NCBI GenBank assembly: GCA_021298895.1 | Contig: JAJTHK010000055.1 | Location: 1-57,684, forward strand | Reading direction: 5' to 3' | Origin: Luteolibacter sp. | GTDB taxonomy: Bacteria; Verrucomicrobiota; Verrucomicrobiia; Verrucomicrobiales; Akkermansiaceae | DNA: 57,684 nt | Made by a program: the position numbers and the translations under genes | The notes under the pieces: generated by a model | Seen by the model: the letters and a program-made list of their open reading frames with translations, nothing else | The model's database searches: none | Told to the model about the DNA's origin: nothing | Shown here: piece by piece, positions 209 to 57,684 of the stretch | Layout of the letters: the number at the start of each line of letters is the position of its first letter | Position numbering within the stretch: the stretch's first letter is position 1

Positions 209-1186
209 TTAGATCTCCTGGACAGGCAAATTGGAGACCTCCTCGCGTAGTTTCTCGGCAAGCGGGGTTGAAAGGTAGCGCTCGCTGGAAGAGCAGCCTA
301 TCGTAACGATGCGCTTGCCTTTGAATTCCGGGCGTTTGGCGACCTGCATCGCCGCCCAAACGTTGGCTCCTGTGGAAATACCTGCTGGCAAACCTTCTTC
401 TTGTGCAAGAGCTTGGGCGGTTGCGAAAGCATCTTCGTTGGAGACTTGGATCACCTCGTCGACGATATCGACATTGAGGTTTCCTGGGATAAAGCCCGCA
501 CCAATTCCCTGGATCATGTGCGGACCTGGCTGAATCGGCTCGCCAGCTTTTTTCTGAGTGATAACAGGACTGTTAACAGGTTCGACGGCGAAAGTTTTCA
601 TCGCGCAACGCGATTTCAAAACTTCGGAGACTCCTGTGATAGTTCCACCTGTGCCGACACCTGCAACAAACGCATCAATTTTTCCATCCGTGTCGCGCCA
701 GATTTCTTCGGCGGTGGTTTCGCGGTGAACTTGTGGGTTGGCTGGATTATCAAATTGGCTCGGACCGTATGAACCTGGGTTTTCTTCGATGAGCTTTTTC
801 GCCATCGCAATCGCACCACCCATGCCTCTAGCACGTGGAGTGAGAACGATTTCCGCACCTAACAAACGAAGCAACACGCGGCGCTCAACCGACATGCTCT
901 CTGGCATCGTGAGAATGCAGCGGTAACCTTTCGATCGTGCGACAAACGCGAGGGCGATTCCGGTGTTTCCAGAAGTTGGCTCGATGATGAGGCCACCTGG
1001 CTTGAGTTTCCCCTCGCGCTCACCGGCCTCAATCATCGATTTACCGATACGGTCTTTCACGCTGAAGAGAGGATTGAAAAATTCTGCCTTCACGCAGATC
1101 TCAGCTTCGAGACCTTTGGTGATGTGGTTTAGGCGAATCAGTGGGGTGTTGCCAATCGTGGCAACCATGTTTTCTGCGATATTCAT
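209..1186 (-). CDS. cysK: cysteine synthase A
   Basis: 325 aa; IGNTPL, SVKDR (PLP lysine), [15 protein letters not shown] and IQGIGAGF motifs. Confidence 0.96.
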
Positions 1187-1363
1187 AAGGTTTGGAGTCG
1201 TTATAAGTTGCCGCAGCTTAGGTAAGTCCGCGCGACCCCGCCAGCGGAAATCGACCCGATAAGGAAAAATCCCATTTCACTCGACCCAGCAATCATGCTT
1301 TGGGGCGAAGAAATATCCCCACTTTCACGATAGTATCGTTTTTCATGGCAGCTTTTCTCCGGA

Positions 1364-2374
1364 TCAATCCTTCACAGGCACGATCCAGATGTTACGAAAA
1401 AAGACTGGGTTGCCATGATCTTGTATATTGACCGGGCCCTCGGCATTCACGAGCGGAGTCGAAATTGGTGCGGCAGTGGTGAAGTCTTTGTTCAGCTCCA
1501 GATCTTCATGCACGAGCACGCCGTTGAGCCTCACGGTGATGCGTGGCCATGTGGTTCGTTTGCCTTCGGCATCGAATTTCGCAGCCGTTAATTCCACATC
1601 ATAAGTCTGCCATGCAAGTGGCGGCAGGCACATGTTGAGTTTCGGTTTTGAGACCGAATAAATCCCTCCGCATTCGTTGTCCTTGCCATCGAGCCCAAAG
1701 GAATCAAGCACTTGGGTTTCCCACCGACCACTGTGATAAATACCGCTGTTGCCGCGACCCTGTCCGCGAGCGGTGGGCTTATAGGGCGTGCGGAATTCTA
1801 AGTGAAGACGGTAACTTGCGAATTTTTGTTTTGAGGTACATCCCGAAGCGAGCAAACCATTTTCGACTTTTCCCTTTTCCCACTGCTCTGCCGAACTTCC
1901 ATCAAATAAAACCACCGCATCCTTCGGCGCAGCCATCCCCAGAGTCGGACTCTTACGCTCGATGCGCGACAGTTCCGATTTCTTGCCATCTTTGTCTGTT
2001 AGAATCCACTTGCCACCTTGAATTGTGGCAGCGATCGATTTGTCAGAACTTTCGAAAACGATTTTATCTTCCTGGCGGGCACCTTTCAGAATGGTGCGCT
2101 TTTTATCAGGAGTCCACCCCAAGCCCGGCAATCCTCCTTCTAACAGGCAAGCATCAAACAATCCACCACCAAGTGCTACAACCTGAACCCCCTCACTGGC
2201 GCCCCCTGCTTTTTCACCTCCATATTCACCTTGAATAGAGAAATCCGGATCTTCTCTAATAGCGACTTCAGGATCGGTCCAGGCCTTGTCTTGCTTCTTT
2301 TCTGCCGCACGAACTTGGCAAATGCCCAAGACGAAGAATGCAGACAAACAATGGAGGAGGAAAATTGGTTTCAT
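1364..2374 (-). CDS. secreted DUF1080 (3-keto-disaccharide hydrolase family) protein
   Basis: Signal peptide; VVLFDG, LHLEF, GNSGIY, WQTYDV, VRLNGV and IQDHGNPVFFRNIWI motifs. Confidence 0.85.
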   Translation of the reverse strand: MKPIFLLHCLSAFFVLGICQVRAAEKKQDKAWTDPEVAIREDPDFSIQGEYGGEKAGGASEGVQVVALGGGLFDACLLEGGLPGLGWTPDKKRTILKGARQEDKIVFESSDKSIAATIQGGKWILTDKDGKKSELSRIERKSPTLGMAAPKDAVVLFDGSSAEQWEKGKVENGLLASGCTSKQKFASYRLHLEFRTPYKPTARGQGRGNSGIYHSGRWETQVLDSFGLDGKDNECGGIYSVSKPKLNMCLPPLAWQTYDVELTAAKFDAEGKRTTWPRITVRLNGVLVHEDLELNKDFTTAAPISTPLVNAEGPVNIQDHGNPVFFRNIWIVPVKD

Positions 2375-2447
2375 GGGTTTATTTGCTTTTAAAATACCTC
2401 TACGGCTTGAGTAAAATGCATACTCTATTGACGAAATATAAAGTCAC

Positions 2448-3188
2448 CTAAATCTGGAAATCCGAAGTGTTCGACTCCTGGTGCAGTCCGCACTCAAATT
2501 TCTCGCCGTTGAAGCGGGTGCCGTTGGTGGTGCCGTCTTCGGAGGGTTTAGTACTGTGCCAATCGCCCATGGTAACGTAGCCCTGTTCGGCGAGTGGGTG
2601 ACGGGGAAGTTGGTGTTGATGAAAAAACAGATCCACCTGTGCATCAGCCCAATCGAGGATGGGATAGACTTTGAGCGTTCTCTTTTGTTGCTCAGCGAAA
2701 GGTCGATCCTGGCGCGTTTCGGAGTGTGAGCGCCGCAAACCGCTGATCCAAACATCGCCGCCAATCTCGCGCAACGCACGATTCATCGGCTCGACTTTTG
2801 TTAGAAGCGCGTAACGATCCGCGCCTTCTTTACCGTTTTCCCAAAGATTCCCCCAAAGCGCCTGAATGCGTGCGGCGGAAAGGGTGGGTTGGTAGATTCT
2901 GTAATCGAGCGGAAATTTCTCCATCAACTCTTCTGCATAGCGGTAGGTCTCGGGGAAAAGGAATCCGGTATCGATGGAAACGATAGGAATTTTCGGTGCG
3001 TGATCGTGGATGAGCTTGAGCATCACCGCCGCTTGAAGGCCGAAGCTTGTACTGGCGACAAGGCGGCTACCGAGGCGCTCATACAACAACTCAAGACGCT
3101 TCCCCGCACGAAGATTCACGAGTTCAGCGGAGAGCTGAACCGGATCTACGACTTGCGCGTCTTGGGTGTTGTTCTTCAGAGCTTCCAT
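2448..3188 (-). CDS. cysH: phosphoadenylyl-sulfate (PAPS) reductase
   Basis: TSFG, IDTGFLFPETY, SGLRR and C-terminal ECGLH motifs; directly downstream of cysI. Confidence 0.93.
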   Translation of the reverse strand: MEALKNNTQDAQVVDPVQLSAELVNLRAGKRLELLYERLGSRLVASTSFGLQAAVMLKLIHDHAPKIPIVSIDTGFLFPETYRYAEELMEKFPLDYRIYQPTLSAARIQALWGNLWENGKEGADRYALLTKVEPMNRALREIGGDVWISGLRRSHSETRQDRPFAEQQKRTLKVYPILDWADAQVDLFFHQHQLPRHPLAEQGYVTMGDWHSTKPSEDGTTNGTRFNGEKFECGLHQESNTSDFQI

Positions 3189-3200
3189 GAAAATGCGTGA

Positions 3201-4916
3201 TTAAGCTCGTGCTTCTTCTTTAATGTTCTTGTGGAAATCCTTGCCTTGCTCGGTAGCGCTCACATAGCCCGCACGAATACAAAAATCGCCGAAACGCTCA
3301 CCTTCTTTACGCTCTTTGGCGTAATGCTTGATGATGGGACCGAGGAGCGATTTAACTTCACCACCAGGGAAATTCTCTCGGAAAAGTTTCGACAACCGCT
3401 GACCCGCAAAACCACCGCCGAGATAGACGTTGTAGCAACCGGGTGAACGACCGACGAAGCCGATCTCTGAAATATAAGGGCGCGCGCAACCGTTCGGGCA
3501 GCCGGTCATACGGATAGTGATCGCATCGTGGCGGAGGCCGGCTTCTTCGATGACTTCCTCAAGTTCTGTTAGAAGCTCGGGCAGGTAACGTTCCGCCTCG
3601 GCGAGGGATAGAGCACAAGTCGGCAACGCCACGCAAGCAAGCGAGTTCAAACGCAGGCCGCTTTTCAAATGGCTGTCTTTGATACCGTATTGTTCGAGAA
3701 GCTTTTCGATTTCCGGACGTTTCTCTTTTGAAACGTTGGCGATCATCAGGTTCTGGTTTGCGGTGAGGCGGAAGTCGCCATCGTGAATTTTTGCGATTTC
3801 ACGCAAACCCGTGCGCATCGGATAGCTCGGCGTGTCGAGCACACGACCGCCTTGAATGAAAAGGGTGAGGTTGAATTTTCCATTAACGCCTTCGACCCAA
3901 CCGTAACGATCGCCGTTATCCTCAAATTTGAATTCACGAACCGGACCAAGGTTATAACCGAGGTATTCGTTGAGTTTTTCAAGGAACCACTGAGGGCCGT
4001 GATCGTCCACGGTGTATTTCAAACGCGCATGTTTGCGCTCCGTGCGGCAACCGAAATCGCGCTGCACAAGAACGACTTTTTCAGCGACGTCGTTGACTTG
4101 CTCGACCGTGCAGAAACCGATCACATCCGCCAGGCGCGGGTAGGTTTCTTCAGAGCCGTGGGTCATGCCCATGCCACCGCCGACTGCGACGTTGAAACCG
4201 ACGAGTTTGTCATTTTCAACAATGGCGATGAAGGACAAGCAGTTCGCGTAGATGTCGACATCGTTGGATGGCGGCACCGCGACCGTGATTTTAAACTTAC
4301 GTGGAAGGTAGGTTTTACCGTAGATCGGCTCGACCTCTTCTTCGCTGGATTCGATTTTCTCACCATCTAACCAGATCTCGTGATAGGCACGAGTTGCAGG
4401 CGTGAGGTGATCGGAAATCTGTTGGGAAACTTTTAGTACTTCCGCGTGAACCGATGAGAGGTAAGGGTTCGGGTTGCACATCACGTTGCGGTTCACATCG
4501 CCGCAAGCCGCAATCGTATCCATCGCCGTTTGGTTGATCTCTTTGATCGTGCGCTTGAGGTTGGATTTGATGATGCCGTGAAATTGAAACGCTTGGCGTG
4601 TGGTGAGCTTGATCGTGCCGTTAGCGAACTGCGTCGCCATGCGGTCGGTTTCGAGCCACTGCTCAGGAGTCGCGACTCCACCCGGCACGCGAATACGGAT
4701 CATGAACGAGTAGGCTTTATCCAACTTGTGTTTACGACGGTTCGCACGCAGGTCGCGATCGTCTTGTTGGTATGTGCCGTGGAATTTCAGCAACTGCTGA
4801 TCGTCCTCGCTCATCGAGCCAGTGGACGTATCGGCGAGACCTTCCTTGATGGTTCCGCGGAGGTAATTGCTGCGAATCTTGATGTATTCGTTAGCGGCTA
4901 GTTTTTGATCGGACAT
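3201..4916 (-). CDS. cysI: assimilatory sulfite reductase hemoprotein subunit
   Basis: [38 protein letters not shown] and GCPNGC (siroheme/4Fe-4S ligands). Confidence 0.96.
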
Positions 4917-4932
4917 GATGATTATAGGGAAA

Positions 4933-4974
4933 GATGGGTCGGATTGGACTGATCGGTCGGATCAGACGGATTTT
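4933..4974. repeat. degenerate 9-bp tandem repeat (single arm) between cysJ and cysI
   Basis: gatgggtcg-gattggact-gatcggtcg-gatcagacg-gatttt. Confidence 0.65.
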
Positions 4975-4976
4975 CT

Positions 4977-6743
4977 TCAATAAACGTCGCGCTGGTAACG
5001 CTTGGATTTTTTGAGGCTCTCAACGTATTCCTCGGCTTGTTCGCGGGATTTCGCGCCGTGGGTTGAAACGATGGAAATGAGTGCCTCGTGAACATCGGCT
5101 GCCATGCGACTCGCGTCGCCGCAGACATAGAAATGCGCGCCTTTTTCTAGCCATGCGTAAAGTTCCGCACCCTTTTCTAACATTTTATCTTGGACGTAGA
5201 CTTTCTCGGGTTGGTCGCGCGAAAAGGCGAGGTCGAGTTTGGTGAGATTGCCGTTTTTGAGAAAATCCTGCCACTCGAGTTGATAAAGGAAATCGTAGGT
5301 GTAGCGCTGATCACCGAAGAACAGCCAGTTTTCTCCGGTCGCTCCGGTTGCCGCACGGTGTTCAACAAAGGAACGGAATGGAGCCACACCTGTGCCCGGA
5401 CCCACCATGATGATGGGCGTCTTGTCATCGGCTGGAAGGCGGAAGTTTTTGTTAGGCTGCACGAACACCGGAACATTTTCACCGATCTTTGCGATGTCGG
5501 AGAGGTAGGTGGAGCAAACGCCTTTGCGAGTTCTACCGTGAGTTTCATATCTCACCGCTGCAACGGTGAGATGCACTTCATCTGGATGTGCGAGCGGGCT
5601 GGAAGCGATGGAATATAAGCGCACTGGAAGTTTGCGGAAAATACCAGCAAGCGCATCGGCGGACAGACCGTTGGGCGCGAAGTCGATGATCGCATCGATG
5701 ATTTCGCGACCATCCATATATTCGCGAAGCTGGTCTTTGGCTTCTTCTTCAAGAAGAGCGGTGAGCTTTGCCGTTCCTGTAGCTTCAGCGAGCTTTTTCA
5801 AAACCGCTTTGGAAAGCGCGGTGATATCGAAGTCTTCGCGTAAGGCGTCCGCCAAAAGCTTTTTGCCCTCACCTTTCACTTCGATCTCTTCGATACCTTT
5901 TAATTTCGCAGCAGCAAGGATGTCTTTGACCATCGCTGGGCAATTCGTTGGCTGAACCGCTAGCGCATCGCCGGGTTCGTATTGCAAGCCACTACCTGTT
6001 AGAGAGAGTTCAACATGAATAGTTTCTTTTGTGGAGCCTTCGCCGTTGAGAAGAAGGTTTTCGATCACTTCGGAAGGGAAAGGATTTTTCTTTCCAAAAT
6101 CGGTGCTGACAGGAGCGGCATATTCGTAAGCGGCAGGTGCAGCAGCGGCGGCAGCAGGAGTGATCGCCTTGAGTGCGATTGCGAACCACTCGGCAAACGT
6201 ATCTTCGTAATCGACATCACAATCCGCACGTGGCGCCACTCGAGTCGCACCTAACGCTTCAAGTCGGGCATCGAACTGTTTTCCGATTTCGCAGAATTTT
6301 TCGTAAGAGGTATCGCCGAGTCCGCAGACGGAAAATTTCACGCCAGTGAGTTTCACATCCTCGGACATGAAGGCTTTATGGAAACTGACAGCGGTTTCAG
6401 GAGCTTCGCCATCGCCCCATGTGGAAACGATCACGAGCAGGTTTTCGACTTTCGCGAGATCCGCCGGAGAAATGTCCGACATGTTTTTCATCACGGCTTT
6501 GAAACCTTTTTTCTTCGCTTCTTTGACGGCGCGGTCCGCGAGTTGCTCGGAGTTGCCGCTTTCCGTGCCGTAAAGCACGGTCAATTTACCAGCCGACACA
6601 GCAGCAGCGGCGGGCACGACAGCAGACGAACTGGCCGCAAGGAATCCACTGAGCCATCCGCGCTGAAGCGCATCCAAGCCAGCAAGCATCGAATCCAACG
6701 ACTTGCGCTGGTCTGGGGAAAACGGGGAACTCTCGGGAAGCAT
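4977..6743 (-). CDS. cysJ: sulfite reductase flavoprotein subunit
   Basis: Flavodoxin motifs YGTESGNS and STWGDGEAP; RLYSIASS, GPGTGVAPF and terminal RYQRDVY. Confidence 0.95.
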   Translation of the reverse strand: MLPESSPFSPDQRKSLDSMLAGLDALQRGWLSGFLAASSSAVVPAAAAVSAGKLTVLYGTESGNSEQLADRAVKEAKKKGFKAVMKNMSDISPADLAKVENLLVIVSTWGDGEAPETAVSFHKAFMSEDVKLTGVKFSVCGLGDTSYEKFCEIGKQFDARLEALGATRVAPRADCDVDYEDTFAEWFAIALKAITPAAAAAAPAAYEYAAPVSTDFGKKNPFPSEVIENLLLNGEGSTKETIHVELSLTGSGLQYEPGDALAVQPTNCPAMVKDILAAAKLKGIEEIEVKGEGKKLLADALREDFDITALSKAVLKKLAEATGTAKLTALLEEEAKDQLREYMDGREIIDAIIDFAPNGLSADALAGIFRKLPVRLYSIASSPLAHPDEVHLTVAAVRYETHGRTRKGVCSTYLSDIAKIGENVPVFVQPNKNFRLPADDKTPIIMVGPGTGVAPFRSFVEHRAATGATGENWLFFGDQRYTYDFLYQLEWQDFLKNGNLTKLDLAFSRDQPEKVYVQDKMLEKGAELYAWLEKGAHFYVCGDASRMAADVHEALISIVSTHGAKSREQAEEYVESLKKSKRYQRDVY

Positions 6744-6981
6744 AATCCTTAGTAATTTACCTTTCTTTGTCAGGTTTCAACAAAAACCTGCATTCTCATG
6801 GGCGAATTAGCAACTATTATTTCAGAAAAATCGCCACCAACCCCTTCACCACCCCTCCCCAACATCCACCCCGAAAACCACCAAATTTACAATCTTTGTC
6901 CCAGCTGTGACAAGAATTGTAAAAAGCGATGGGCGGTTAGGCGACGTTGCCTTGGTGGGTGAGCTTATTATTTAAGCTAAT

Positions 6982-7011
6982 CGGCTCATAATTTAGTCTT
7001 TTCATGAGCCG
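6982..7011 (-). terminator. possible hairpin after the GH127-like gene
   Basis: CGGCTCAT...ATGAGCCG inverted repeat about 20 bp beyond the stop; long loop and no clear U-tract. Confidence 0.3.
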
Positions 7012-7030
7012 GATCTTTTCCTGTCTCCGG

Positions 7031-8248
7031 TTACGGAAATATAATCTGCCGCCGGTAGCCGACGGCCGGGTCCAGCAGATGGTAGATCGGTTGGAGCACG
7101 AGATCCGTGCCTTCGACCAGGAAATCACGCTCGCCTCGACGGCTGAATCGCGCATCAGGCTTGACGGACACCGCCTTCGGTCCCGAGTAGCCCAGCATCA
7201 GCGGACCGTAATGGAACGTGCGATAGTCAGCGCGGTCGGCACCGTTAACCCGGTTAATGGGCGCCTTGGCCGCGACGCTCTGCTCGAATGACAACTCCAC
7301 GACGTCCCCCGCCTGCCAGCGGCGCGAAACATTGAGGAATCCACCTTGGGGGGTTAACGATACCATTGAGCCATTGAGCTTGAGGACCGGGCGCTCAGCC
7401 CAAGAGGGAGTAAACAGGTTCAGGGTTCGTGGCTCATCGCCTTGGGCAGCGGTTACCTCAAGCCGCACGTCGCCCTGCCACGGATAGCCCGTCTTTTGGA
7501 GGAGCGTGAGAGATTGTTTACCCCAACGCAAAGTGGCCCGGGCATCCTGGTAAAAGGGCACGATCACGCCCGCATCGCTCTTGAAAAAACAATACTGCGC
7601 CGCCTTGGTCAGCCCGTCGGCACCCCGCATGGTGCAGCACTGGGTTGCCTCCTGGGATACAATGGTTAGAAAGGGTTTATCCACCGAGGGGCAGCTGTTA
7701 CAGCCGAGGCCGCCATTGCTTCTCTGATTGACGCTCAGCCCGTTGTAGTAGATCCGGTGGGCATCCTCGAGGTAAGTGGCCTCGCCGGTGTAGCGCCACA
7801 ACTGCACGGCGATGATGACCGCGTCGGGCGGCATGACCGGCCCAAGGTAGCCCCGGGCGTTGACTCTGCTCGCATACATGTCGAGGCTCGCCCCAAGGTT
7901 CTTGGCTGGTCTTCCAGTGACCTGCTCCAGCAGAACGAGTCCAAGCAAGGTGCGTCCCTCTTTGTCTCCAGGCCATCCGGCGTTGGGGGAGTCGAAGAGC
8001 GCTGGGGGAGAGTAGTCTTTTTTCTCGAGACGATCGAAGCTCGCCATCAGCCGCTTGGACAGCTCGCCGGTCATCCTCACGTCGGCGAGTTCCACGGCGA
8101 CCGGCCAAGGGCATTCAGGCGGTGCCACCCCCTTGTCCCGGGCAACGCCATCCGATGCGGACGCGAGCGCCGGAAGCAGCAGGAGAAGGGCCCATCGAAA
8201 GGACGGAACGAATGGAGCGGATAGGAATTTGGCCTTCAACTTACTCAT
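7031..8248 (-). CDS. GH127/GH146 (beta-L-arabinofuranosidase-like) glycoside hydrolase, probably with an in-frame internal deletion
   Basis: Signal peptide; WPGDKEGR, QLWRYTGEATYLEDAHRIYYN, QCCTMRG, TGYPWQGDV, RRWQAGDVVEL and YGPLMLG motifs; only 405 aa. Confidence 0.7.
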   Translation of the reverse strand: MSKLKAKFLSAPFVPSFRWALLLLLPALASASDGVARDKGVAPPECPWPVAVELADVRMTGELSKRLMASFDRLEKKDYSPPALFDSPNAGWPGDKEGRTLLGLVLLEQVTGRPAKNLGASLDMYASRVNARGYLGPVMPPDAVIIAVQLWRYTGEATYLEDAHRIYYNGLSVNQRSNGGLGCNSCPSVDKPFLTIVSQEATQCCTMRGADGLTKAAQYCFFKSDAGVIVPFYQDARATLRWGKQSLTLLQKTGYPWQGDVRLEVTAAQGDEPRTLNLFTPSWAERPVLKLNGSMVSLTPQGGFLNVSRRWQAGDVVELSFEQSVAAKAPINRVNGADRADYRTFHYGPLMLGYSGPKAVSVKPDARFSRRGERDFLVEGTDLVLQPIYHLLDPAVGYRRQIIFP

Positions 8249-8350
8249 AACGTATCTAACATGGCCTTTTGCGACCCAAAAAACAATGGTAGCCTATGCC
8301 AAAAATATGTATATTCTTGCATTTTTTGATAACCTGCGGAAAATGCTGGA

Positions 8351-9226: not shown

Positions 9227-9397
9227 TTTGAATAGTTGGAGGTCGAAAATAGCGGGATTACTTAATATGTGTAGTCGTCGCTGTCGCTCCTCAACCCCGC
9301 ACTAATTTCTTAGATTCGACTAGGATCGCAAATGGTAGAACAAGCATAAACCACGAATCCTCTTTTACAGACGCCATCATTGACCTAAATTCTTGAT

Positions 9398-9844: not shown

Positions 9845-9911
9845 GTGACCTTTTCATGAACCCTACCAATTCAGGGTTTCCTAATTGAGGATTTAGCTTT
9901 AAACCTCCCGC

Positions 9912-10988: not shown

Positions 10989-11088
10989 AATTTCAAAATT
11001 CGAATTTCAACTTTGAAAAAAACTCGCTGCGCTATCACTATTGTTTCTCTTCCTTGAACTTTGAAATTTGAAACTTGAACTTTTAAAC
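10989..11088. repeat. inverted heptamer-tract module
   Basis: aatttca-aaattcg-aatttca ... tttctcttcc-ttgaact-ttgaaat-ttgaaac-ttgaact-tttaaac. Confidence 0.75.
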
Positions 11089-12787: not shown

Positions 12788-12851
12788 TTTTTATTCATAC
12801 CAAGCGAAACCCGCTTGGCGAATTCGATGTGCCTCCGTTACGATCTTAGTC

Positions 12852-13657: not shown

Positions 13658-13660
13658 ACC

Positions 13661-49500: not shown

Positions 49501-49691
49501 AAATTCGTATCCTTGGCGAATTTCACGGGCAGGAACTTGAACGCTTCACCGCCAACCCAGCTGAAGCCACCACATTACTAAAGGTCGGCCATTCCCCCGC
49601 ACCAGCGGCAATTCCTCCCACCAAACTCGCCGCCGCAACCTCGATGGCCCGCGCCATACTCAACCTTCACGAAACCATCACCCGCTACTGA
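46554..49691 (+). CDS. planctomycete cytochrome c / DUF1549 / DUF1553 protein
   Basis: CFFCHG, CAECHDH, WLDVVRYADS, PSHPELLDWLA and SNTPLQAL; true start may be ATG 46668. Confidence 0.92.
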   Translation: MTIPNLDHPIRGTIKHIAIINPSVRAVKRLGSSFRLPQMFLVILSYSALTPLLLGQQPEIRYGRDIRPILSDKCFFCHGPDPKTREEDLRLDIREDAIASKAFIPGNPEKSRLIKLINATDEDDIMPPPASHKVLTKTEKQLLHDWIKAGAEYEPHWAYTQPVRKPGETIDSLVANDLKRRNLDFSPPADPSTLLRRMHLDVIGLPPSPEQVANFQKAHAENPAAAVRQIVEELLASPHFGERMALSWLDVVRYADSVGYHGDNERSASPFRDYVIESFNSDKPFDQFTIEQLAGDLLPNATLQQQIGSSYNRLNQLSEEGGIQDAEYLAKYQAERVRTTSAAWLGSTLACAECHDHKFDPFKAKDFYSFAAYFSDILEKGAWNGNGKYQEDIAKWTTLGIPFNKWGPVLNVPTPEQESRLREIDQKILQLRAQLNAPAETDQKELDTWITDQRALLDSKEPYDAPLLDETLPEPASIDDTKLVDRSVAPVQSGSHSRKQEAAGLYQHIAKLKNPAAVHEGDQLYLWVYLDPTKPPRALMLQVNVNGKWEHRAYWGEAVIEYGKSAGGHAYHHAGALPKAGEWTRLSVSAASLGIAPKALISQLACAQFDGLVYWDNVGIHSTNPARRLAHLPPEAITQLSAAVTDKAKLAQIYRRTTPAWKKLSAEITSLENERAGILKTTPSVPMTISAKPREIRLLNRGDWQDKSGPIVSPATPGFLTTATSTNDPSTRPTRLDLAKWIVSKENPLTARVFTNRIWARLLGTGLSKDTGDLGLQGEYPSHPELLDWLALEFMENKWSSKHLLRSILLSRTYQQSSTPSPALAESDPNNRLLARQSQLRLPAELIRDNALAVSGLLHPEIGGPSAKPYQPSGYYRHLNFPAREYKADTGSQLYRRGLYTHWQRTFLHPMLKAFDAPSREECTPDRSSSNTPLQALNQLNDPAFTEAARALAAKLLEEPEGETNLVARAWIRCLGRTATAEEIRILGEFHGQELERFTANPAEATTLLKVGHSPAPAAIPPTKLAAATSMARAILNLHETITRY

Positions 49692-49699
49692 TCGATCCC

Positions 49700-51079
49700 A
49701 TGTTCCACCACTCCAATCGCCGCACCTTCCTCGGTCAAGGCCTCACCGGCCTCGGCACGATCGCTCTATCACGTCTGTTAGGAGCTGAAATTGCCTCTGG
49801 CCCCGCCCCTAAGTTACAACCCAAGGTCAAACGCGTCATCTTCCTCAGCATGGCGGGAGGTCCATCCCATTTGGAAACCTTCGATTTCAAACCGAAGCTC
49901 CGCGAACTACACGGCAAGCCAATGCCAGAGTCCTTCACCAAAGGCCAACAACTCGCGCAACTTCAAGGCATGACTCTCAACTGCCTAGGTCCTCAACACG
50001 ATTTCTCCCGCCACGGTAAATCTGGGTTAGAGATCAGCAATGTCTTCCCCCACATCTCGAAACACGCTGACGAGATCGCGGTGATCCGCTCGATGCACAC
50101 CAAGCAGATCAACCACGATCCCGCCCACACCTTCATGAACACCGGTTCGATCATCCCAGGCCGACCATCGATGGGAGCCTGGGTGCTTTACGGACTCGGC
50201 AGCGAAAGCCAGAACCTGCCGGGTTTCGTGGTGCTCACCAGCGTCGGCGGCGGCCAAGCCCAACCGATCTCGTCGCGCCAGTGGAGTAGCGGCTTCCTCC
50301 CAGGCCACCTGCAAGGCGTCGAGTTCCAATCCGCCGGCGACCCAGTACACTACGTCCGGACTCCTCCCGGCAACACGCCCGCATCCCAACAACAACTCAT
50401 TCAAACCGTCAACCGCCTCAACGCGCTCAACTCACCTACAACCCGCGATCCGGAAATCGCCACCCGCATCCAGCAGTATGAACTCGCCTTCCGCATGCAG
50501 GCCTCCGTGCCGGAATTGATGTCCTACCAGGATGAGAGTAAAGAGACACTCGAAATGTATGGATGCACCCCGGGCGATGGCTCTTTCGCGTCGAACTGCT
50601 TACTAGCGCGCCGTCTCGCTGAGCGCGGCACTCGCTTCATCCAAGTCTATCACCGCGGCTGGGACCACCACGGCGGAGTCAAGAACGGCGTCGCCACTAC
50701 CGGAAAAATTGTCGATCAAGCGACCTCCGCCCTACTCACCGATCTCAAGCAACGCGGTCTGTTAGAAGATACGCTGGTCGTCTGGGGCGGTGAGTTCGGC
50801 CGTACCCCGATGGCCCAAGGCGATGGTCGAGACCATCACATCAAGGCTTTCTCCATCTTCCTCGCAGGCGGCGGCATCAAGGGCGGCACCGTGCATGGTG
50901 AATCAGATGAACTAGGTTACGGGATCGCCCGCGACCCTGTCTCCGTTCACGATCTCCACGCGACCCTGCTTCATCTGTTAGGCCTCGACTACCAGCGCTT
51001 CTCATATCGCCATCAGGGACTCGACCAGAAGCTCACCGGGGTCGAGCCAGCATCAGTCATCAAGCAAATCCTCGCCTAG
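49700..51079 (+). CDS. DUF1501 family protein (Tat signal)
   Basis: NRRTFL, GGPSHLETFD, WDHH, GEFGRTP and GRDHH motifs. Confidence 0.93.
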   Translation: MFHHSNRRTFLGQGLTGLGTIALSRLLGAEIASGPAPKLQPKVKRVIFLSMAGGPSHLETFDFKPKLRELHGKPMPESFTKGQQLAQLQGMTLNCLGPQHDFSRHGKSGLEISNVFPHISKHADEIAVIRSMHTKQINHDPAHTFMNTGSIIPGRPSMGAWVLYGLGSESQNLPGFVVLTSVGGGQAQPISSRQWSSGFLPGHLQGVEFQSAGDPVHYVRTPPGNTPASQQQLIQTVNRLNALNSPTTRDPEIATRIQQYELAFRMQASVPELMSYQDESKETLEMYGCTPGDGSFASNCLLARRLAERGTRFIQVYHRGWDHHGGVKNGVATTGKIVDQATSALLTDLKQRGLLEDTLVVWGGEFGRTPMAQGDGRDHHIKAFSIFLAGGGIKGGTVHGESDELGYGIARDPVSVHDLHATLLHLLGLDYQRFSYRHQGLDQKLTGVEPASVIKQILA

Positions 51080-51293
51080 GGAAAATCCTTTCATTCAAAC
51101 CAAGAGAAGCCCTCATAGTCACTTCTAATGGCAGCAACCCCTAATTCGGCAGCGCAAAGATCTTCGCGCAGATGGGAAAGATTTTGCTGAAGCTGATCTC
51201 AAGATCAGCAAGTTGTCTTGCCTGTAATCTTTACAAATCTGGCATAAAAACTAATATCAATCGAATATAAAAAACCACCCGATACGATATCGC

Positions 51294-53624
51294 ATGACCA
51301 AGAAAATGAAAAAACTCAAAATACTTGTATCCAGCCGCTTGATGACGGCTGCCTTTGCAACGCTAATCCTCACAGCAGTCGACGCCAAAACATGGACCAG
51401 TGCCGACGGAGCAAAATCCTTCGAAGGCGAACTCAAGTCCTACGACGCCGAAAAGGGCTTAGTTACGGTAACTCTTCCCAACGGTAAGCCGATTAACTTC
51501 TCAGAAAAGATTCTTGCGCCAGCTGACATTGCTTACCTCAAAGAAAATGGAAGTAAGATCGCTGCTGCAGCGACAACCGTTGTAAACACCAAAGACATTC
51601 CCGATGTTTGGCCTCCTACAGACGAGAAACCCTACAACGGCAAAAATCTTAAATCTGAATACGCGGCCGAACTGAAGTCTCTGTTAGCTGATCTCTCCCG
51701 CTCACTACCTAAGGTTGGAGGCAACGGATTTGCAGAACTTGAAACAGCAGTCAAGGCTAGCGCCGAAGCAGAAGCAAAAGCGGAAGCTGCGCAAAAAGAG
51801 TTCGGCCAAATCGGTGGAGCTAAGGCATTGATCGACCACGCCAAAGGCAAATGGATCGGCGGCGCGAACAAAAACATAGCAGATGCGCAAGCAGCTATCA
51901 AAAATGCAAAAAGCCCAGCTGAAAAAAGCGCTGCAGAGAGAAGCCTCGCCGATGCAAAGAAAAACCTCGCTGATGGAGAAGCCGCCCTCAAAGAACGCAC
52001 AGAGGCCTATGAAAAAGCCAAGGCCAACGAAACAACTCTCAAGAAAAACCACGAGCAAGCACAGGCAGTTTTGGCCGAAGCTAAAAACCGTGAATCAGAT
52101 GCCGCTAAAAAACTGATTGGTTCCATGAGTTCATTTCTCTCTAGCAACTCACTAGACGGAAAGCTCGCTAAGGCATTTATTCTAACAGTATCTACTCCAG
52201 ATGGACTTGGCGCTTTCGCCGATAAAAGCGTTGTTAATGCTGCCGCAGTCGAACAACTACTAGCCAATGATGAATTGATGATGGAGATGATGGTAGCCGG
52301 TGGCGCGCGCTACGGAAAATTCGGCGAAGCCATGAAGATTTTCACCACGATTCAGAAAATCAGCCCGCAGGCAAAAGATGGAGTCTTACGCCGTTTTGCC
52401 CTAGCCACCAGCCTAGAACACGGGCAGCCAGTCAAAGCAAATCTGAGCCCTAACGTCGCAGATCAATCTCCAAATATTCACCCCATCAAGCGATATCTAC
52501 AATACGAAAAAGCTTACTTAGCTGACGAGCTGGACCCCGCCTTCAAAACGCTAAACACATGGGAAATGCGCTTTGTCGCAAACAGTGAGGATCCCGATGA
52601 AATCCTTGTCTGGGGTCGTGAAATGCTGCGCACCTACCGGCCGGACCACATTTACAACCCGGACTATGGCTGGCGCTACGTTTCCAGCGTGAGGACCGAG
52701 GTCCCTTATGGATCGCAGAATGTGAAGTTTGACGATCCATCAAATCATCAACACCAGAACATCATCCGTAACGGAGGCGTCTGCGGACGCCGGGCATTTT
52801 ATGGCCGTTTTATTCTTCGCTCCTTCGGGATCCCCACCTGGGGTGTCACCCAAAAAGCCCACGCCGCCCTCAGCCATTGGACACCCAAAGGCTGGGTAGT
52901 TAACCTTGGCGCCGGATTCCAACACAGCTGGTGGGACAAAGATGAGGAGAAGCTCAGCGGCAGCCAGTTTTTGTTAGAAACCCAGGCACGCGCCCACAAG
53001 GACGAATACATCAAAATTGTGCGGGCGGAGATGGTGAGCCGCATTCTCGGAGAAAAGGCCTATAACGAACGCGGCAATGAGCAGGGCGGGCATTGGAGCA
53101 ATGTCGCCCTCAACCTGTCCCGCCTCCTCGCTTCCAGCACCGCCGCCCTCGGCCCGCTCGGCCAAGAACTCGCCGAGGCCAACGAAAAAGAGCAAGAACT
53201 CCAATCAGAGGCTACCTCAAAAGAGGATCTTGAAATCCAGGAAAAAGGCGGCGTGATCACCGTTCCGGTCATCGCCCACAAATCAATCTCCGGCAAATCG
53301 GCATCCATGCGCTCTTTCTCGGGCGGCATGCAAATCCACGCCTTCGGCGGCTTCAATGCGGAGTATAAAATCCAAGCGCAACGATCAGGAGACTATCTGC
53401 TGACCGCCAAGGTTGCCACAGCTCAAACTGGCCAAGGATTCGTTTACACCGTGAATGACGCGCAACCCGTTCAACAAGCCGCTCCCTATACGATTGGTGT
53501 CTGGAAAAACTCCGAAGCTATCCCGGTCAAACTCAAAAGTGGATCAAACACCCTTCAATTCCAAATCACGGATGGCAGCCGTGGCGTAACCCTCAAGGAA
53601 TTCACCCTGACTCCGGCCAGGTAA
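51294..53624 (+). CDS. secreted multidomain protein (SHD1-like, coiled coil, transglutaminase-like core, C-terminal beta-sandwich)
   Basis: KTWTSADG..F.G SHD1-like start; Ala/Lys/Glu-rich coil; GGVCGRRA..FGIP..HA; LKSGSNTL. Confidence 0.6.
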   Translation: MTKKMKKLKILVSSRLMTAAFATLILTAVDAKTWTSADGAKSFEGELKSYDAEKGLVTVTLPNGKPINFSEKILAPADIAYLKENGSKIAAAATTVVNTKDIPDVWPPTDEKPYNGKNLKSEYAAELKSLLADLSRSLPKVGGNGFAELETAVKASAEAEAKAEAAQKEFGQIGGAKALIDHAKGKWIGGANKNIADAQAAIKNAKSPAEKSAAERSLADAKKNLADGEAALKERTEAYEKAKANETTLKKNHEQAQAVLAEAKNRESDAAKKLIGSMSSFLSSNSLDGKLAKAFILTVSTPDGLGAFADKSVVNAAAVEQLLANDELMMEMMVAGGARYGKFGEAMKIFTTIQKISPQAKDGVLRRFALATSLEHGQPVKANLSPNVADQSPNIHPIKRYLQYEKAYLADELDPAFKTLNTWEMRFVANSEDPDEILVWGREMLRTYRPDHIYNPDYGWRYVSSVRTEVPYGSQNVKFDDPSNHQHQNIIRNGGVCGRRAFYGRFILRSFGIPTWGVTQKAHAALSHWTPKGWVVNLGAGFQHSWWDKDEEKLSGSQFLLETQARAHKDEYIKIVRAEMVSRILGEKAYNERGNEQGGHWSNVALNLSRLLASSTAALGPLGQELAEANEKEQELQSEATSKEDLEIQEKGGVITVPVIAHKSISGKSASMRSFSGGMQIHAFGGFNAEYKIQAQRSGDYLLTAKVATAQTGQGFVYTVNDAQPVQQAAPYTIGVWKNSEAIPVKLKSGSNTLQFQITDGSRGVTLKEFTLTPAR

Positions 53625-53642
53625 TTCTCGCTTCCAAGGAAT

Positions 53643-53685
53643 GACAAACCGTCGTCAGGGATATGACGAGGGTTTGTCGGCTTTT
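53643..53685 (+). terminator. hairpin terminator
   Basis: GACAAACC-g-TCGTCA ... TGACGA-g-GGTTTGTC followed by ggctttt. Confidence 0.65.
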
Positions 53686-53767
53686 AAAAAAAAATTGAAA
53701 ATCCCGAGCTTCCCCTCACGTATCAGGAACTATCACTTGCGGCTCCACCCCACTCACCCTTGATTCC

Positions 53768-55228
53768 ATGTTCGAAATCACCCGTCGTCATTTTCTTTCC
53801 AAGCTCTCCACCGGAATCGGTGGGGCAGCTCTAGCATCGATGTTGCCTCAGCGCGCTTCGGGCGCCAATGCGTTAGCAGAGAAACTTCTGAGAGACCACG
53901 CACCCAAGGCAAAACGGGTGATCTACCTGTTCATGTCCGGCGGTCCTTCGCACATGGATCTTTTTGACTACAAGCCCAAGCTCAACGAGCTCAATGGCCA
54001 GCAACTGCCTGACTCCGTCCGCAATGGTCAGCGCCTCACCGGCATGTCAGGAAACCAAGCCGTGTTGCCGCTTGCGGGCTCACAGTTCAAATTCGCCCAA
54101 TATGGAAAATCCGGCGCCTGGGTCAGTGAATTGCTACCGCACACCGCAAAAGTCGTGGACGATCTTTGCTTCGTGAAATCCCTCTGGACAGAAGCGATCA
54201 ATCACGATCCCGCGATGACCTTTTTTCAAACCGGCTCCCAGATCGCCGGCCGCCCTTCACTCGGCTCATGGGTCACTTACGGCCTGGGCTCGGAAAATGA
54301 AAACCTACCGGGTTTTGTGGTCCTGGTGACAAAAAAACCTACTGACCAACCGCTTGCCGCCCGCCTCTGGGGCACCGGCTTCCTCGACTCTCGCTACCAG
54401 GGCGTGCGTTTCTCCTCCGGAAAAGACGCGGTGTTCTACCTCTCCAATCCCGATGGGGTTTGCCAATCGGGCCGACGCGCGCTCTTGGATAAACTCTCCG
54501 CTCTCAATAAAATGGATTTCCAAAATGAAATCGATCCCGAGATCGAAACGAGGATCGCCCAATATGAAATGGCTTATCGCATGCAGACCAGCGTGCCGGA
54601 AGTCACCGATATCAGTGGCGAGCCACAATCCATCAAAGATCTCTACGGTCCGGATGCCCAAAATCCCGGCACTTTTGCCGCCAATTGCCTGCTTGCGCGC
54701 CGCCTCGCGGAAAAAGGAGTCCGTTTCATCCAGCTCTATCATCCAGGATGGGATCAACATGACAACCTGCCTTCCGCGATTCGCAAACAAACCCAGGAAA
54801 CCGATCAAGGCTGCGCGGCTTTGATTGCGGATCTCAAGCAACGCGGCATGTTGGAAGACACGCTCGTCGTCTGGGGGGGTGAGTTCGGACGCACCGCTTA
54901 CTCGCAAGGCACATTAACCAAAGACAACTACGGCCGGGATCACCACCCGCGCTGCTTCACCGCATGGATGGCCGGGGGCGGGATCAAACCCGGAATGACT
55001 TACGGAGCGACCGATGACTATGGCTACAACATTGTCGGTGCCGATGGCCAAGCGATCAATCCATCGAAAGATAAATACATTCCCGGTACCGTTCACGTAC
55101 ACGATTTCCATGCCACCATCCTCAACCAACTCGGCATCGACCACACCCGCCTCTCCCACACCTTCCAGGGCAGACGATTCCGCCTAACAGATGTACATGG
55201 ACATATTGTGAAGGAGCTGCTTTTATAG
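53768..55228 (+). CDS. DUF1501 family protein (Tat signal)
   Basis: TRRHFL, GGPSHMDLFD, WDQH, GEFGRT and GRDHH motifs. Confidence 0.93.
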   Translation: MFEITRRHFLSKLSTGIGGAALASMLPQRASGANALAEKLLRDHAPKAKRVIYLFMSGGPSHMDLFDYKPKLNELNGQQLPDSVRNGQRLTGMSGNQAVLPLAGSQFKFAQYGKSGAWVSELLPHTAKVVDDLCFVKSLWTEAINHDPAMTFFQTGSQIAGRPSLGSWVTYGLGSENENLPGFVVLVTKKPTDQPLAARLWGTGFLDSRYQGVRFSSGKDAVFYLSNPDGVCQSGRRALLDKLSALNKMDFQNEIDPEIETRIAQYEMAYRMQTSVPEVTDISGEPQSIKDLYGPDAQNPGTFAANCLLARRLAEKGVRFIQLYHPGWDQHDNLPSAIRKQTQETDQGCAALIADLKQRGMLEDTLVVWGGEFGRTAYSQGTLTKDNYGRDHHPRCFTAWMAGGGIKPGMTYGATDDYGYNIVGADGQAINPSKDKYIPGTVHVHDFHATILNQLGIDHTRLSHTFQGRRFRLTDVHGHIVKELLL

Positions 55229-55237
55229 GAGAGAAAT

Positions 55238-55338
55238 GATTGACGATTGCTGATTGACGATTGTTGATATTTGATTTGAAAGAGAAATCAAAACAGCATC
55301 GCTTACTCTTCATTCAACAATCAACAATCGTCATTCAA
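55238..55338. repeat. inverted heptamer-tract module
   Basis: gattgac-gattgct-gattgac-gattgtt-gatattt-gatttgaaagag ... ctcttca-ttcaacaatcaacaatcgtcattcaa. Confidence 0.85.
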
Positions 55339-55404
55339 TACAGATCATGTGTTCGCTATTCTCATAGCTATTAAATGATTTATAAAATCCCAGCAACCCA
55401 CACC

Positions 55405-56367
55405 ATGAAAACCCCACTATTCGCCGCATTACTCACTTTAACTCCCATATTTGGAGCTGAGGTTTTAAAAACCACCGAAACCGATAGCGCCATCACGATC
55501 ACCCACGGCGAGAATACGGTTCTGGTTTATCACAAAGCTGAGCTCACACCTCCTGAAGGCGTCAAACCCATCTACAAACGCTCTGGCTTCATTCATCCGC
55601 TTTGCACTCCAGCAGGACATGCGGTGACCGGCATCCATCCCCCCGATCACTATCACCATCTCGGGCTTTTTCACGCATGGGTGCAAACCAAACATGGTGA
55701 GGACAAAATCGATTTCTGGAATCTCGATAAAGCAACTGGCAGAGTGCGTTATACTTCTACGATTTCGGTTACCAAGGGCGAGCAGTCCAAAGCAACGGGT
55801 TTCAGCGTGAAGCAGGAACACGTCGCATACAAAGGCAAAGAAAAAAAGGAAACGGTTGTCCTTGAAGAAATTTTCACCATCACCGCCGAGTCTATGGATG
55901 GTCACAATGTCATCACTTACGACGTCGCACAAACCAATATCACTGACACAGCTCTAACACTTCCCGTCTTTCGTTACGGTGGATGCCTTGGCTGGCGCGG
56001 CCCTCATACATGGAACAAAGACAACAGCACCATACGGACATCCGAAGGCAAAGGCCGCGATGACAGCCACACCACACGCGCAAAATGGATCGCTTATGAA
56101 GGCTCTGTAGAAAAAGGCCAAGTCACCTTCGCGGTCTTGATCCATCCGGATAATCATGATTTCCCCCAACGCCTCCGCACATGGACGGCAAAAGATAACA
56201 ATGGCGCACCCTTCCTAAGCATCTGCCCCGTCCAAGAAAAACCCTGGGAAATCACTCCTAAACAAACCATCAAAATGCGCTACACCCTCATCACCTGCGA
56301 TGGCACTGTCGAAGTCGCTAAAATCGATGAATGGTGGAAATCCCTAACCCAACGCATTAACAAATAA
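55405..56367 (+). CDS. secreted DUF6807 ('PmoA family') protein
   Basis: RSGFIHPL.TP.G, PPDHYHHLGLF, DFW, YGG..WR and HPDN motifs. Confidence 0.75.
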   Translation: MKTPLFAALLTLTPIFGAEVLKTTETDSAITITHGENTVLVYHKAELTPPEGVKPIYKRSGFIHPLCTPAGHAVTGIHPPDHYHHLGLFHAWVQTKHGEDKIDFWNLDKATGRVRYTSTISVTKGEQSKATGFSVKQEHVAYKGKEKKETVVLEEIFTITAESMDGHNVITYDVAQTNITDTALTLPVFRYGGCLGWRGPHTWNKDNSTIRTSEGKGRDDSHTTRAKWIAYEGSVEKGQVTFAVLIHPDNHDFPQRLRTWTAKDNNGAPFLSICPVQEKPWEITPKQTIKMRYTLITCDGTVEVAKIDEWWKSLTQRINK

Positions 56368-56397
56368 CAATCCCCCTATCTCCCTATCCTCTTTCCC

Positions 56398-57327
56398 ATG
56401 AAACTCCTAATCCGCACCATCGCGTTACTCACCGCTATCGCTCCTCTTGCTATCCGTGCTCAGGAAGTTGCTGCGCATCCCGTCAAGCCGCTGCTCTGGA
56501 AAATCGAAGGCGGCGATCTAAAAAAACCATCCTACCTCTTCGGCACAATCCATCTTGGCGGCGGCGCACTGAACAAGCTTCATCCCACAGCTCAGAAAGC
56601 TTTCGATGAATCCGAAATCTTGCTTACCGAAGTACCCATGGATGCAAAAACTCAGATGGGCATAGCGATGAAAGTCATGCGCAAAGACGGTAAAACCCTC
56701 GCGGATTCGATAGGTGCGGATTTATCCAATCAACTAGATGACGAACTCAAGGCGATCAATCCCGCTTTGAATTCAAAACCTTTCCAACCCATGTGCACAT
56801 GGGCGATTGCCGCTACCTTGCCCATGTTGGAAGCTCAACTCACTGGCGCGACCGCTCTTGACCAAAAGCTCTGGGCCGCGGCCGTCAAACAAGGCAAAAA
56901 AACCGATGCGATGGAGACCGCTGATTTCCAAGTGGATCTACTCGCTTCATTCACCGAAGCGGAGCAAGTGAATTTCCTATCTGAAACCCTCCGCTACATG
57001 CGCAAAGATCGCGAAGAGGGAACAAACAGCGTGAAAGAGCTCACCGATGCCTACATCAAGGGCGATGCCGAACTCCTGGAGAAACTGATCGAAAAATCGT
57101 TTAAAGAAATGCGCGAAGGCCCGCATAAAGAGCTCGGTGAGAAATTTTGCGACAAACTCCTGACCCAACGCGACAAAACCATGGCGGCCACCATCGCCGA
57201 GAAGCTCAAAAAATCACCCGACACCATCCATTTCTTCGCCGCCGGCTCAGCCCATTTCACGGGAGACCCAAGCATCCGCAGTCATTTAGAAAAAGCCGGC
57301 TACCGCATCACCCGCATCGCGGAGTAG
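56398..57327 (+). CDS. TraB/GumN family protein
   Basis: LLWKI, SYLFGTIH, ETADFQ, RDKTM and FFAAGSAH motifs. Confidence 0.9.
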   Translation: MKLLIRTIALLTAIAPLAIRAQEVAAHPVKPLLWKIEGGDLKKPSYLFGTIHLGGGALNKLHPTAQKAFDESEILLTEVPMDAKTQMGIAMKVMRKDGKTLADSIGADLSNQLDDELKAINPALNSKPFQPMCTWAIAATLPMLEAQLTGATALDQKLWAAAVKQGKKTDAMETADFQVDLLASFTEAEQVNFLSETLRYMRKDREEGTNSVKELTDAYIKGDAELLEKLIEKSFKEMREGPHKELGEKFCDKLLTQRDKTMAATIAEKLKKSPDTIHFFAAGSAHFTGDPSIRSHLEKAGYRITRIAE

Positions 57328-57684
57328 GCTGGGATCAGCTAAATACCCCCAAGCTTAAGCCTTTCAGAGCCTTAATTACTGGGATATTTCACCATTTCAC
57401 CGTACCACACCCTACTTTGCGACCCCTCTTGCAGCTTCCTGCCCTCGTAGACTCCTTGACCACCATATTTATAGCGACGGCGGGGGCTTAGTGGAGTGCT
57501 TTTAACCCGGAACTCAATATGGAGATTCGGGTTTTTACCACAGAGCAGTGGTGTTAGTGTGCAAGTGAAAATTCTGGATTTGCTACAAGTTTATTTAGAA
57601 CACAGAGCATTTTACGCATTACGGCAACGATCGCAATTTTTGCACTTTTTCCAGATAGGCGCAGGCGCTCGTAAAAGGCTTTTA

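Follow-up and report, generated by a model that had tools for sequence, protein, structure and literature searches.

The window analysed here, a 57,684 nt stretch of Luteolibacter sp. DNA (contig JAJTHK010000055.1, C133 in our numbering), carries ordinary housekeeping and carbohydrate genes in which the hexamer TGTTAG, or CTAACA on the opposite strand (the word), recurs. It is part of a source genome (G000) of 2,760,843 bp (2.76 Mb) that is 89% complete. An exact count on the + strand gives 32 TGTTAG and 30 CTAACA, or 62 copies, as an earlier note on this DNA had estimated, and every coordinate quoted in that note is correct. The evidence set out below suggests that the word is probably a protein-binding site. 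Its copies in the window are as follows.

859..57557, both strands: 62 dispersed copies, the local share of the 2,344 present genome-wide
1997..57557, + strand: 32 copies of TGTTAG, starting at 1997, 2799, 3567, 5450, 5997, 8899, 10369, 10510, 15161, 17100, 17423, 17612, 17966, 19628, 20498, 23830, 24175, 24696, 29893, 34588, 41656, 43260, 47953, 48838, 48910, 49420, 49776, 50760, 50976, 51682, 52972 and 57552
859..55959, - strand: 30 copies of CTAACA, with + strand starts at 859, 2140, 5177, 8256, 11500, 15355, 16187, 18331, 18927, 23797, 24240, 26745, 26775, 28807, 29985, 31796, 32847, 34687, 35590, 39858, 40564, 40834, 44547, 44681, 45065, 48711, 49039, 52182, 55184 and 55954
5177..5182, - strand: copy in cysJ (flavodoxin/FAD/NAD-binding sulfite reductase subunit), read ATG-TTA-GAA, in the frame class that holds more coding sites than any other (26 of 59)
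3567..3572, + strand: copy in cysI (NIR_SIR), read CTT-CTA-ACA on the coding strand, the frame most enriched genome-wide (588 versus 70 expected)
34687..34692, - strand: intergenic copy 11 nt 5′ of the DUF4340 start codon, an A/C-rich leader position where CTAACA is fairly common
8256 (- strand) and 57552 (+ strand): the other two of the three intergenic copies

With strands pooled, the word ranks first among the hexamers of the window when expectation is taken from a maximal-order Markov model (62 copies versus 36.0 expected, z 6.9). Among its one-base variants, GGTTAG (10) and AGTTAG (8) occur as often as the earlier scan reported, and CGTTAG occurs 16 times where 14 had been given. The 59 copies that lie in open reading frames split 26, 21, 8 and 4 among reading frames. 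The earlier statement that the word occurs in all frames is thus right for four of the six, since a stop codon forbids the others. The codon contexts quoted in that note are correct; besides the cysJ and cysI sites, these are TCT-AAC-AGC (28807), GCT/GGT-GTT-AGA (26745/26775) and TGT-GTT-AGA (17100).

Across the source genome the word is present in 2,344 copies (0.85 per kb) and ranks first among all hexamers (z 41.5). Markov models of orders 0 to 4 predict 1,356, 630, 509, 605 and 1,336 copies, so that the observed number is 1.75 times the maximal-order and 4.6 times the order 2 expectation. The preferred context described earlier, Y-TGTTAG-R, holds genome-wide: the preceding base is a pyrimidine in 71% of cases and the following base is A (63%) or G (21%). 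The full form is therefore Y-TGTTAG-A/G, and YTGTTAGA occurs 952 times versus 78.5 expected, a 12-fold excess.

Codon usage was controlled for by shuffling synonymous codons within genes, and by shuffling codon order, for 2,454 genes of our own calling. In the four open frames the observed and synonymously shuffled counts are 937 versus 231, 174 versus 95, 588 versus 70, and 374 versus 194 (1.8- to 8.4-fold). Codon-order shuffling gives similar values, indicating that the excess is mostly synonymous. The two coding-strand orientations are enriched alike (3.4-fold and 3.6-fold). Substitution at position 2, 4, 5 or 6 of the word abolishes the excess (observed/expected 0.47-1.25), and the remaining positions are graded: 1.9- to 2.5-fold for substitutions at position 1, 1.4-fold (A) and 1.8-fold (C) at position 3, and 5.4-fold for G at position 7. 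These tolerated variants are weaker in relatives (AGTTAGR 1.1-2.1, TGATAGR 1.1-1.6, TGCTAGR 1.0-1.1). Where the protein sequence permits, the word fills 12% of places, CGTTAG and TGTTAC 2-3% and the reversed word 10%. The word is asymmetric and forms no palindrome, and both CGATCG and GATC are depleted in this genome.

Conservation in orthologous DNA gives the same picture. Over 195 kb aligned between the source genome and a relative, G139 (79% identity), 100 of 185 sites are kept, versus 15.5% of other TTAG words. Turnover is balanced, with 85 sites private to G000 and 90 to G139. Where the amino acid is conserved, TTA is retained in 52 of 71 cases within the word versus 74 of 372 elsewhere, and CTA in 35 of 56 versus 41 of 362. 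Conservation at the level of both codons and sites implies that individual sites are maintained by selection or drive. Because all open frames are enriched, both coding orientations are equal and sites are conserved above control words, the results support the proposal of the earlier note that the word is a DNA-level signal and not a codon artefact; the observed/expected ratio is well above 1 under Markov and codon nulls, and enrichment is not confined to one frame.

The replichore-skew check proposed in that note was made on three data sets, none of which shows more polarity than base composition accounts for. On the G-rich strands of 115 contigs of the source genome the split is 935:716 (56.6%, against 57-63% for hexamers of the same composition), less skewed than 116 of 119 such words. 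Twenty samples of a 624-kb contig of G139 give 202:190, with no strand polarity. Twenty samples (400 kb) around the complete 4.65-Mb chromosome of a further relative, G110, give a leading:lagging ratio of 292:224, which equals the median of same-composition hexamers (57%), and both strands are enriched about fourfold. Each 20-kb sample of G110 holds 15-35 copies; the whole chromosome is covered and the word is not confined to the replication terminus (ter).

Pair distances were examined up to 6 kb and dispersion was assessed by windows. Close pairs are depleted in the source genome, to 0.4 of expectation below 25 bp and to 0.8 between 25 and 100 bp; G139 behaves alike and G110 barely so. Consecutive pairs in the source genome (+-/-+ 492/499 versus ++/-- 585/579) show no excess of inverted pairs. 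Close inverted pairs are not in excess either, and we rejected integron attC-like or other paired repeats on that ground.

Genes of the source genome carry 0.89 copies per kb and the DNA outside them 0.53. Observed and expected numbers are 34 versus 10.2 in convergent spacers, 94 versus 44.8 in tandem spacers and 13 versus 18.3 in divergent spacers. For the same three classes, samples pooled from four relatives have densities of 1.62, 1.06 and 0.76 copies per kb, and controls follow the opposite order. We rejected a reading of the word as an extended -10 element (TGnTAnnnT), as T is not preferred at the relevant position (23%) and divergent promoters are not enriched. Ribosomal-protein genes hold 6 copies in 17.5 kb. 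Fifteen restriction-type genes hold 14 copies versus 34 expected, in a set chosen partly from low-density lists and hence partly circular. The longest word-free gap in the source genome, at G000:C25:5831-17945, is 12.1 kb and contains core-looking genes.

In a survey of the family, TGTTAGA was counted in 251 genomes and the control THTTAGA in 80 chosen ones, with both counts available for 79. An index was defined as 3 × TGTTAGA/THTTAGA, with genomes called rich at 5 or more and poor at 1.5 or less. The index ranges from 0.5 to 58 (36 rich, 21 intermediate and 22 poor genomes) and increases with genome size (Spearman 0.51, in relatives that are not independent). Mapped onto a quick tree of AddB from 27 genomes, the rich and poor states require nine changes, of which supported branches force at least seven. 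Thus, the excess has been lost repeatedly within the family. Elsewhere in the order the word is generally rare but reaches high counts in a few genomes, with indices outside the family of 12.7 (G525), 4.1 (G574) and 2.9 (G559). The excess in G536 is of TGTTAGG and not TGTTAGA; the TGTTAGG-leaning excess in G536, other genomes of genus g10, G559 and G544 might reflect either a repeat or a dialectal form of the word. Alternative dialect words were sought in 100-180 kb samples of the poor genomes G123, G083, G163, G094 and G002, and none is prominent.

A protein that might read the word was chosen by an AP2-like pattern among 139 small basic proteins of the source genome, before its promoter was viewed. 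Its gene is located as follows.

G000:C120:9805-10065 (locus L319:3806-4066), - strand: candidate reader gene, 86 residues, outside the window

The candidate is small and basic (net charge +0.128 per residue) and is the sole AP2-like protein of the source genome. All of the 80 family genomes examined encode it. In genus g14 it has diverged and multiplied; many g14 genomes (G050, G121 and others) carry 4-7 divergent AP2-like copies and have no genome-wide excess of the word. Outside the family, close forms were restricted to f6 and a single f3 genome in a search of 121 genomes of the order and 161 of the phylum. No viral contig encodes the candidate. Pfam gives no match for the candidate, homologs are titled hypothetical, and the AP2 profile (PF00847) matches 4 of 59 homologs weakly (best E 0.0046). 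The AlphaFold model (predicted local distance difference test score, 84.8) places a three-stranded antiparallel sheet (residues 7-11, 18-26 and 29-36) on one helix (43-63), with an extra predicted hairpin and a basic C-terminal helix. Ranks 4-6 of the VIA comparison are titled AP2 domains, namely PfSIP2-DNA (Z 6.7, root-mean-square deviation 2.4, 58 residues aligned), WRINKLED1 (Z 5.8) and TEM1 (Z 5.2).

Codon bias, a proxy for expression, is of the ribosomal type and ranks the candidate gene 24th of 2,285 in the source genome, with HU at 41. Contigs from two of four RNA-library runs cover the gene, which shows presence only. It is divergent from rpoA and directly before a photolyase gene in several genera, and lies after rplQ in another (L321-L349). 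Rfam finds nothing around the gene in eight loci; a conserved element 5′ of it is the rpoA leader, which appears to be structured and has no Rfam match.

An exact copy of the word lies within 300 bp upstream of the candidate gene in 39 of 70 genomes; the corresponding numbers for mutL and addB are 1 of 29 and 1 of 26. Leaders carry CTAACA fairly often (46 of 1,881 genes of the source genome), so the recount was limited to positions -160 to -21, with tolerated variants included, and putative operators were defined as TG[TCA]TAG[AG] in that interval. By this definition 39 of 70 genomes carry a putative operator (shuffled, 3.7; maximum 11). An independent metagenome set, for which 80 loci were fetched and 68 were distinct with sufficient upstream DNA, gives 48 of 68 (shuffled, 3.6; maximum 11). 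The pattern is found in 34 of 472 other upstream windows of the same metagenome loci, in 184 of 1,941 genes of the source genome and in 9 of 164 sequences from nine other orthologous upstream sets. Operators are present in 8 of 21 poor genomes and 31 of 49 others, and in 10 of 14 motif-poor metagenome flanks. Their position is genus-specific (about -45, -40, -67 or -87). They accompany the candidate gene even when the upstream neighbour differs, and they vary mainly at the tolerated positions 1 and 3.

A second set of sites precedes hupB, where paired exact copies lie near -145 to -165 or beyond (145-300 bp before the gene) in four of six genomes from three genera. Such sites are absent in the poor genome G163 and in the rich genome G172.

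L224:15135-15434 (G000:C147), and L411, L413 and L414: upstream regions of hupB with pairs of exact word copies

These features suggest that the word is likely to be the site preferred by an abundant nucleoid-type protein that binds the chromosome inside the cell, because it is strand-blind, read as duplex DNA, kept site by site and spaced apart at short range, and because promoters shun it except as an operator before two nucleoid-type genes. The earlier note had offered an uptake sequence, a nucleoid-protein site and a methylation- or repair-driven word as options. The avoidance of promoter zones and the conserved sites 5′ of hupB and the AP2-like gene favour the second, and nothing that we tested favours uptake over it. 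More tentatively, the best candidate for its reader is the 86-residue basic protein of the family, with its predicted AP2-like fold. The candidate would read an asymmetric 6-8 bp word through its three-stranded sheet, as AP2 domains do, and occupied sites would organise or compact the chromosome. If occupied sites are useful, weak selection on synonymous codons would seed them in gene bodies and terminator-side spacers; if binding at promoters disturbs initiation, sites would be tolerated there only as operators. Those operators might exert negative feedback on the candidate's own gene, mostly by way of TGCTAGA and TGATAGA, which are presumed to be weaker, and the copies 5′ of hupB might provide cross-control of HU. 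Binding, repression and the effect on chromosome shape are all inferred. It is doubtful, though conceivable, that the complete scheme is correct, in which a stand-alone AP2 domain is a sequence-specific nucleoid protein that organises the Akkermansiaceae chromosome, represses its own gene and tunes HU, with a 7-bp site about once per kb written into synonymous positions and repeatedly gained and lost.

Several observations weigh against this assignment. The even spacing of sites in G139 (variance/mean 0.36) is not repeated in G110 (1.12). No residue of the candidate separates 35 rich from 21 poor genomes, and poor lineages have kept the protein, sheet residues included, essentially unchanged, so that the candidate cannot alone account for the losses. 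The word is strongly enriched outside the family in G525, and moderately in G574, an 86% complete genome with no AP2-like match. Homologs outside the family are divergent and mostly longer, and an upstream copy precedes 1 of 18 non-f6 homolog genes. In genus g10 elevated counts occur only in homolog-bearing genomes (8 of 12 versus 0 of 8), but 3 of 31 genomes without a homolog match are also elevated.

The structural evidence has similar weaknesses. All VIA scores fall under the tool's own mark of Z 8, and Foldseek returns nothing for the candidate at E ≤ 0.001. Ranks 1-3 and 7 are Toxoplasma mitoribosome chains, which makes an RNA-binding role possible; the three ahead of the AP2 titles we take to be ApiAP2 proteins. 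Furthermore, the sole upstream copy at the candidate gene of the source genome is at -16, the leader-type position, operators are rarer in poor genomes, and the poor member of several sister pairs has none. These results imply that the candidate may be a target instead of the reader, or may need a partner, and because the genomes are related the counts overstate independence.

The rarity of operators in poor genomes also fits an unlikely but plausible alternative, in which the word is the same kind of chromosomal binding site, read by an HU/IHF paralog or a repeatedly lost factor, with the AP2-like gene and hupB as targets. Gene loss is the simplest account of the repeated disappearance of the excess, operators thin out in poor lineages, the hupB sites are missing from poor G163, and the word is enriched in other families that have no close ortholog of the candidate. 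However, HU-family genes are found in rich and poor genomes alike (5/5), no factor with a fitting presence pattern emerged among the families tested, operators persist in some poor genomes and most motif-poor flanks, and the hupB sites are missing from rich G172 as well.

We consider it rather improbable that the word is a DNA uptake sequence of the Neisseria/Pasteurellaceae type, preferred by a pilus-associated receptor and spread by biased uptake and recombination. The absence of strand bias, the sharp core with graded flanks, the presence of ComEC and DprA in 5/5 and PilT in 45/45 genomes, and the low density in restriction-type genes (in the partly circular set described above) agree with such a role, as does a patchy loss resembling sporadic competence (PMC1626085). 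However, the density is lower outside genes and divergent promoter regions lack an excess, neither of which would be expected from an extracellular receptor. Inverted pairs are not in excess; an intergenic excess, often as inverted terminator pairs, is typical of uptake sequences. Operator-like copies are conserved before two nucleoid-type genes, neither competence genes nor ComEA-like HHH_3 proteins track the excess, and no sequence-specific receptor was identified. As causes of the excess we rejected Tex/ComEA-like HHH_3 proteins, whose pattern seemed perfect on 5 genomes and failed on 80, and ComEC, DprA, the HU family and PilT, which occur whether or not a genome is rich. The source genome has a single ComEA-like protein, which is secreted-looking and 303 residues long, with a C-terminal helix-hairpin-helix, on a mobile-looking contig (L151:5821-6732).

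A methylation or repair mark is very unlikely. Here the word would be methylated (in the manner of bacteriophage exclusion, BREX, or MmeI-like systems, at A5) or would serve as a strand signal in mismatch repair, and would be multiplied by repair bias or selection for fidelity. It does have A at position 5, the source genome encodes MmeI- and Eco57I-like enzymes, and GATC, the Dam site, also prefers gene bodies. In addition, MutL lacks canonical endonuclease motifs in all 31 aligned family genomes, g14 included (L163:10107-11846, G000:C44; L272-L301), so that an unrecognised strand signal may exist. The Eco57I-type profile (PF07669) exceeds its cut-off in three of five rich genomes but is sub-threshold in G139 and has no match in the complete, motif-rich G110. 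This excludes a shared PglX/MmeI enzyme and tells against the suggestion in the earlier note that the word is a BREX PglX target, as that genome has no match to an Eco57I-type (gamma-class) methyltransferase. One methyltransferase gene lies in the window itself.

11068..11883, + strand: N6_N4_Mtase (PF01555) gene, 271 residues, considered as the methylase of the word and rejected

This gene looks like an orphan and adjoins aroB. No such short PF01555 enzyme was found in G147, the motif-richest genome tested. Among methyltransferases, the comparison between genomes covered the type encoded in the window and gamma-class enzymes, neither of which is shared. MutH was not found in 5/5 genomes, the degeneracy of MutL does not differ between rich and poor genomes, the flank preference is graded, and near-miss words show no transition-specific depletion.

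Still less probable is a Chi-like recombination signal read by AddAB. The presence of AddAB with RecC absent (5/5 genomes) would suit it, and Chi words lie mostly within genes, some being weakly polarised. However, the polarity of the word does not exceed base composition. AddB, recovered from 28 of 30 genomes, has no residue by which 16 rich and 11 poor genomes can be told apart, and its identity between genera that have the word in common is only about 30%. The operator-like promoter copies would also be left unexplained. In the source genome addB (C2:1865-4579) and addA (C147:32782-35799) are unlinked and lie amid unrelated genes. Finally, the possibility that the word is a by-product of codon or amino-acid usage is negligible and we count it as refuted: 95% of window sites lie in open reading frames and Leu-Leu-Asp/Glu contexts are the most frequent, but the four open frames exceed both shuffles, convergent spacers are also enriched and rare codons are retained only within the word.

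Other features of the source genome were recorded alongside these analyses. GTAC is extremely depleted (2,214 versus 8,485 expected), an avoidance seen too in samples of G163 and G123, and GGCC, GATC, CCGG, GCGC and CCWGG are also avoided. Intergenic repeat families include heptamer-like arrays (AAGAACC/AAGAACT and GAAGAGT), a palindrome resembling repetitive extragenic palindromic (REP) elements and an element at contig ends (examples at C5:298, C5:10145, C22:11 and C11:4645). One such short intergenic element lies 5′ of the AP2-like gene.

Hyper-abundant chromosomal words are known from few lineages. The earlier note knew of none in Verrucomicrobiota, and a full-text literature search, which did not extend to subscription papers and supplements such as methylome tables, likewise returned no paper that describes, for Verrucomicrobia, the word itself, an uptake sequence, or a nucleoid or AP2 protein of this kind. 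The word shapes codon usage (TTA, CTA and ACA) and could serve as a signature for binning or host assignment. Moreover, natural rich and poor sister lineages, together with a concrete candidate reader, make selection of thousands of dispersed intragenic sites directly testable. If the reader were confirmed, bacterial chromatin would gain a new type of protein, and AP2 domains a core function in bacteria.

AP2 domains read 6-8 bp words, and in bacteria they are mostly known from mobile nucleases and integrases. The candidate resembles AP2/ERF and ApiAP2 domains (PfSIP2, 6sy0; WRINKLED1, 7wq5; TEM1, 7et4) in its predicted three-stranded sheet and helix. It differs in being a stand-alone bacterial core-genome protein of 86 residues, encoded beside rpoA or rplQ with ribosomal-type codon bias, that lacks an HNH nuclease or integrase domain and has the extra hairpin and basic C-terminal helix. 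Small, basic, abundant nucleoid proteins with a sequence preference include IHF, Fis, MatP with its matS sites and EbfC of Borrelia, and autoregulation and control of HU genes are common among them. To our knowledge none of the four has an AP2 fold or drives its word to the top of the hexamer spectrum. Unlike matS, the word extends around the whole chromosome.

Chi (RecBCD/AddAB) and the FtsK-orienting polar sequences (KOPS) are non-palindromic, over-represented and conserved in the core genome. The word shares these properties but has no polarity relative to replication, which GGGNAGGG does show in the same samples. DNA uptake sequences and uptake signal sequences occur at about one copy per kb on both strands, with a strong consensus relative to near-misses (PMC1626085) and a patchy distribution among relatives. 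The word is similar in density, strand distribution, consensus strength, patchiness and lack of replichore bias. It differs in its shorter core, its lower density outside genes, its lack of inverted pairs and its independence from competence genes.

The closest parallel is HIP1 (GCGATCGC) of cyanobacteria. PMC5861425 describes it as hyper-abundant, enriched and conserved in all frames, with no strand or RNA role, and as having a proposed role in chromosome structure through a protein that, by that account, had not been found after two decades. The word is likewise over-represented in every open frame and conserved in orthologs. In contrast to HIP1, it is a non-palindromic 6-8-mer with graded flanks and no GATC/CGATCG core, no link to a methyltransferase was found for it, it has no excess in divergent promoter regions, and it occurs in Verrucomicrobiales. 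It also has a named candidate reader, with operator-like sites before the candidate's own gene. We therefore class the word as a variant of the highly iterated chromosomal motifs, because it lacks the palindrome of HIP1, the polarity of Chi and KOPS and the enzyme of BREX systems. It is most likely a HIP1-like chromosomal protein-binding signal; if the candidate is its reader, it would be a hyper-abundant motif of the HIP1 kind with an identified reader, and the AP2 fold would have a role in bacterial chromatin.

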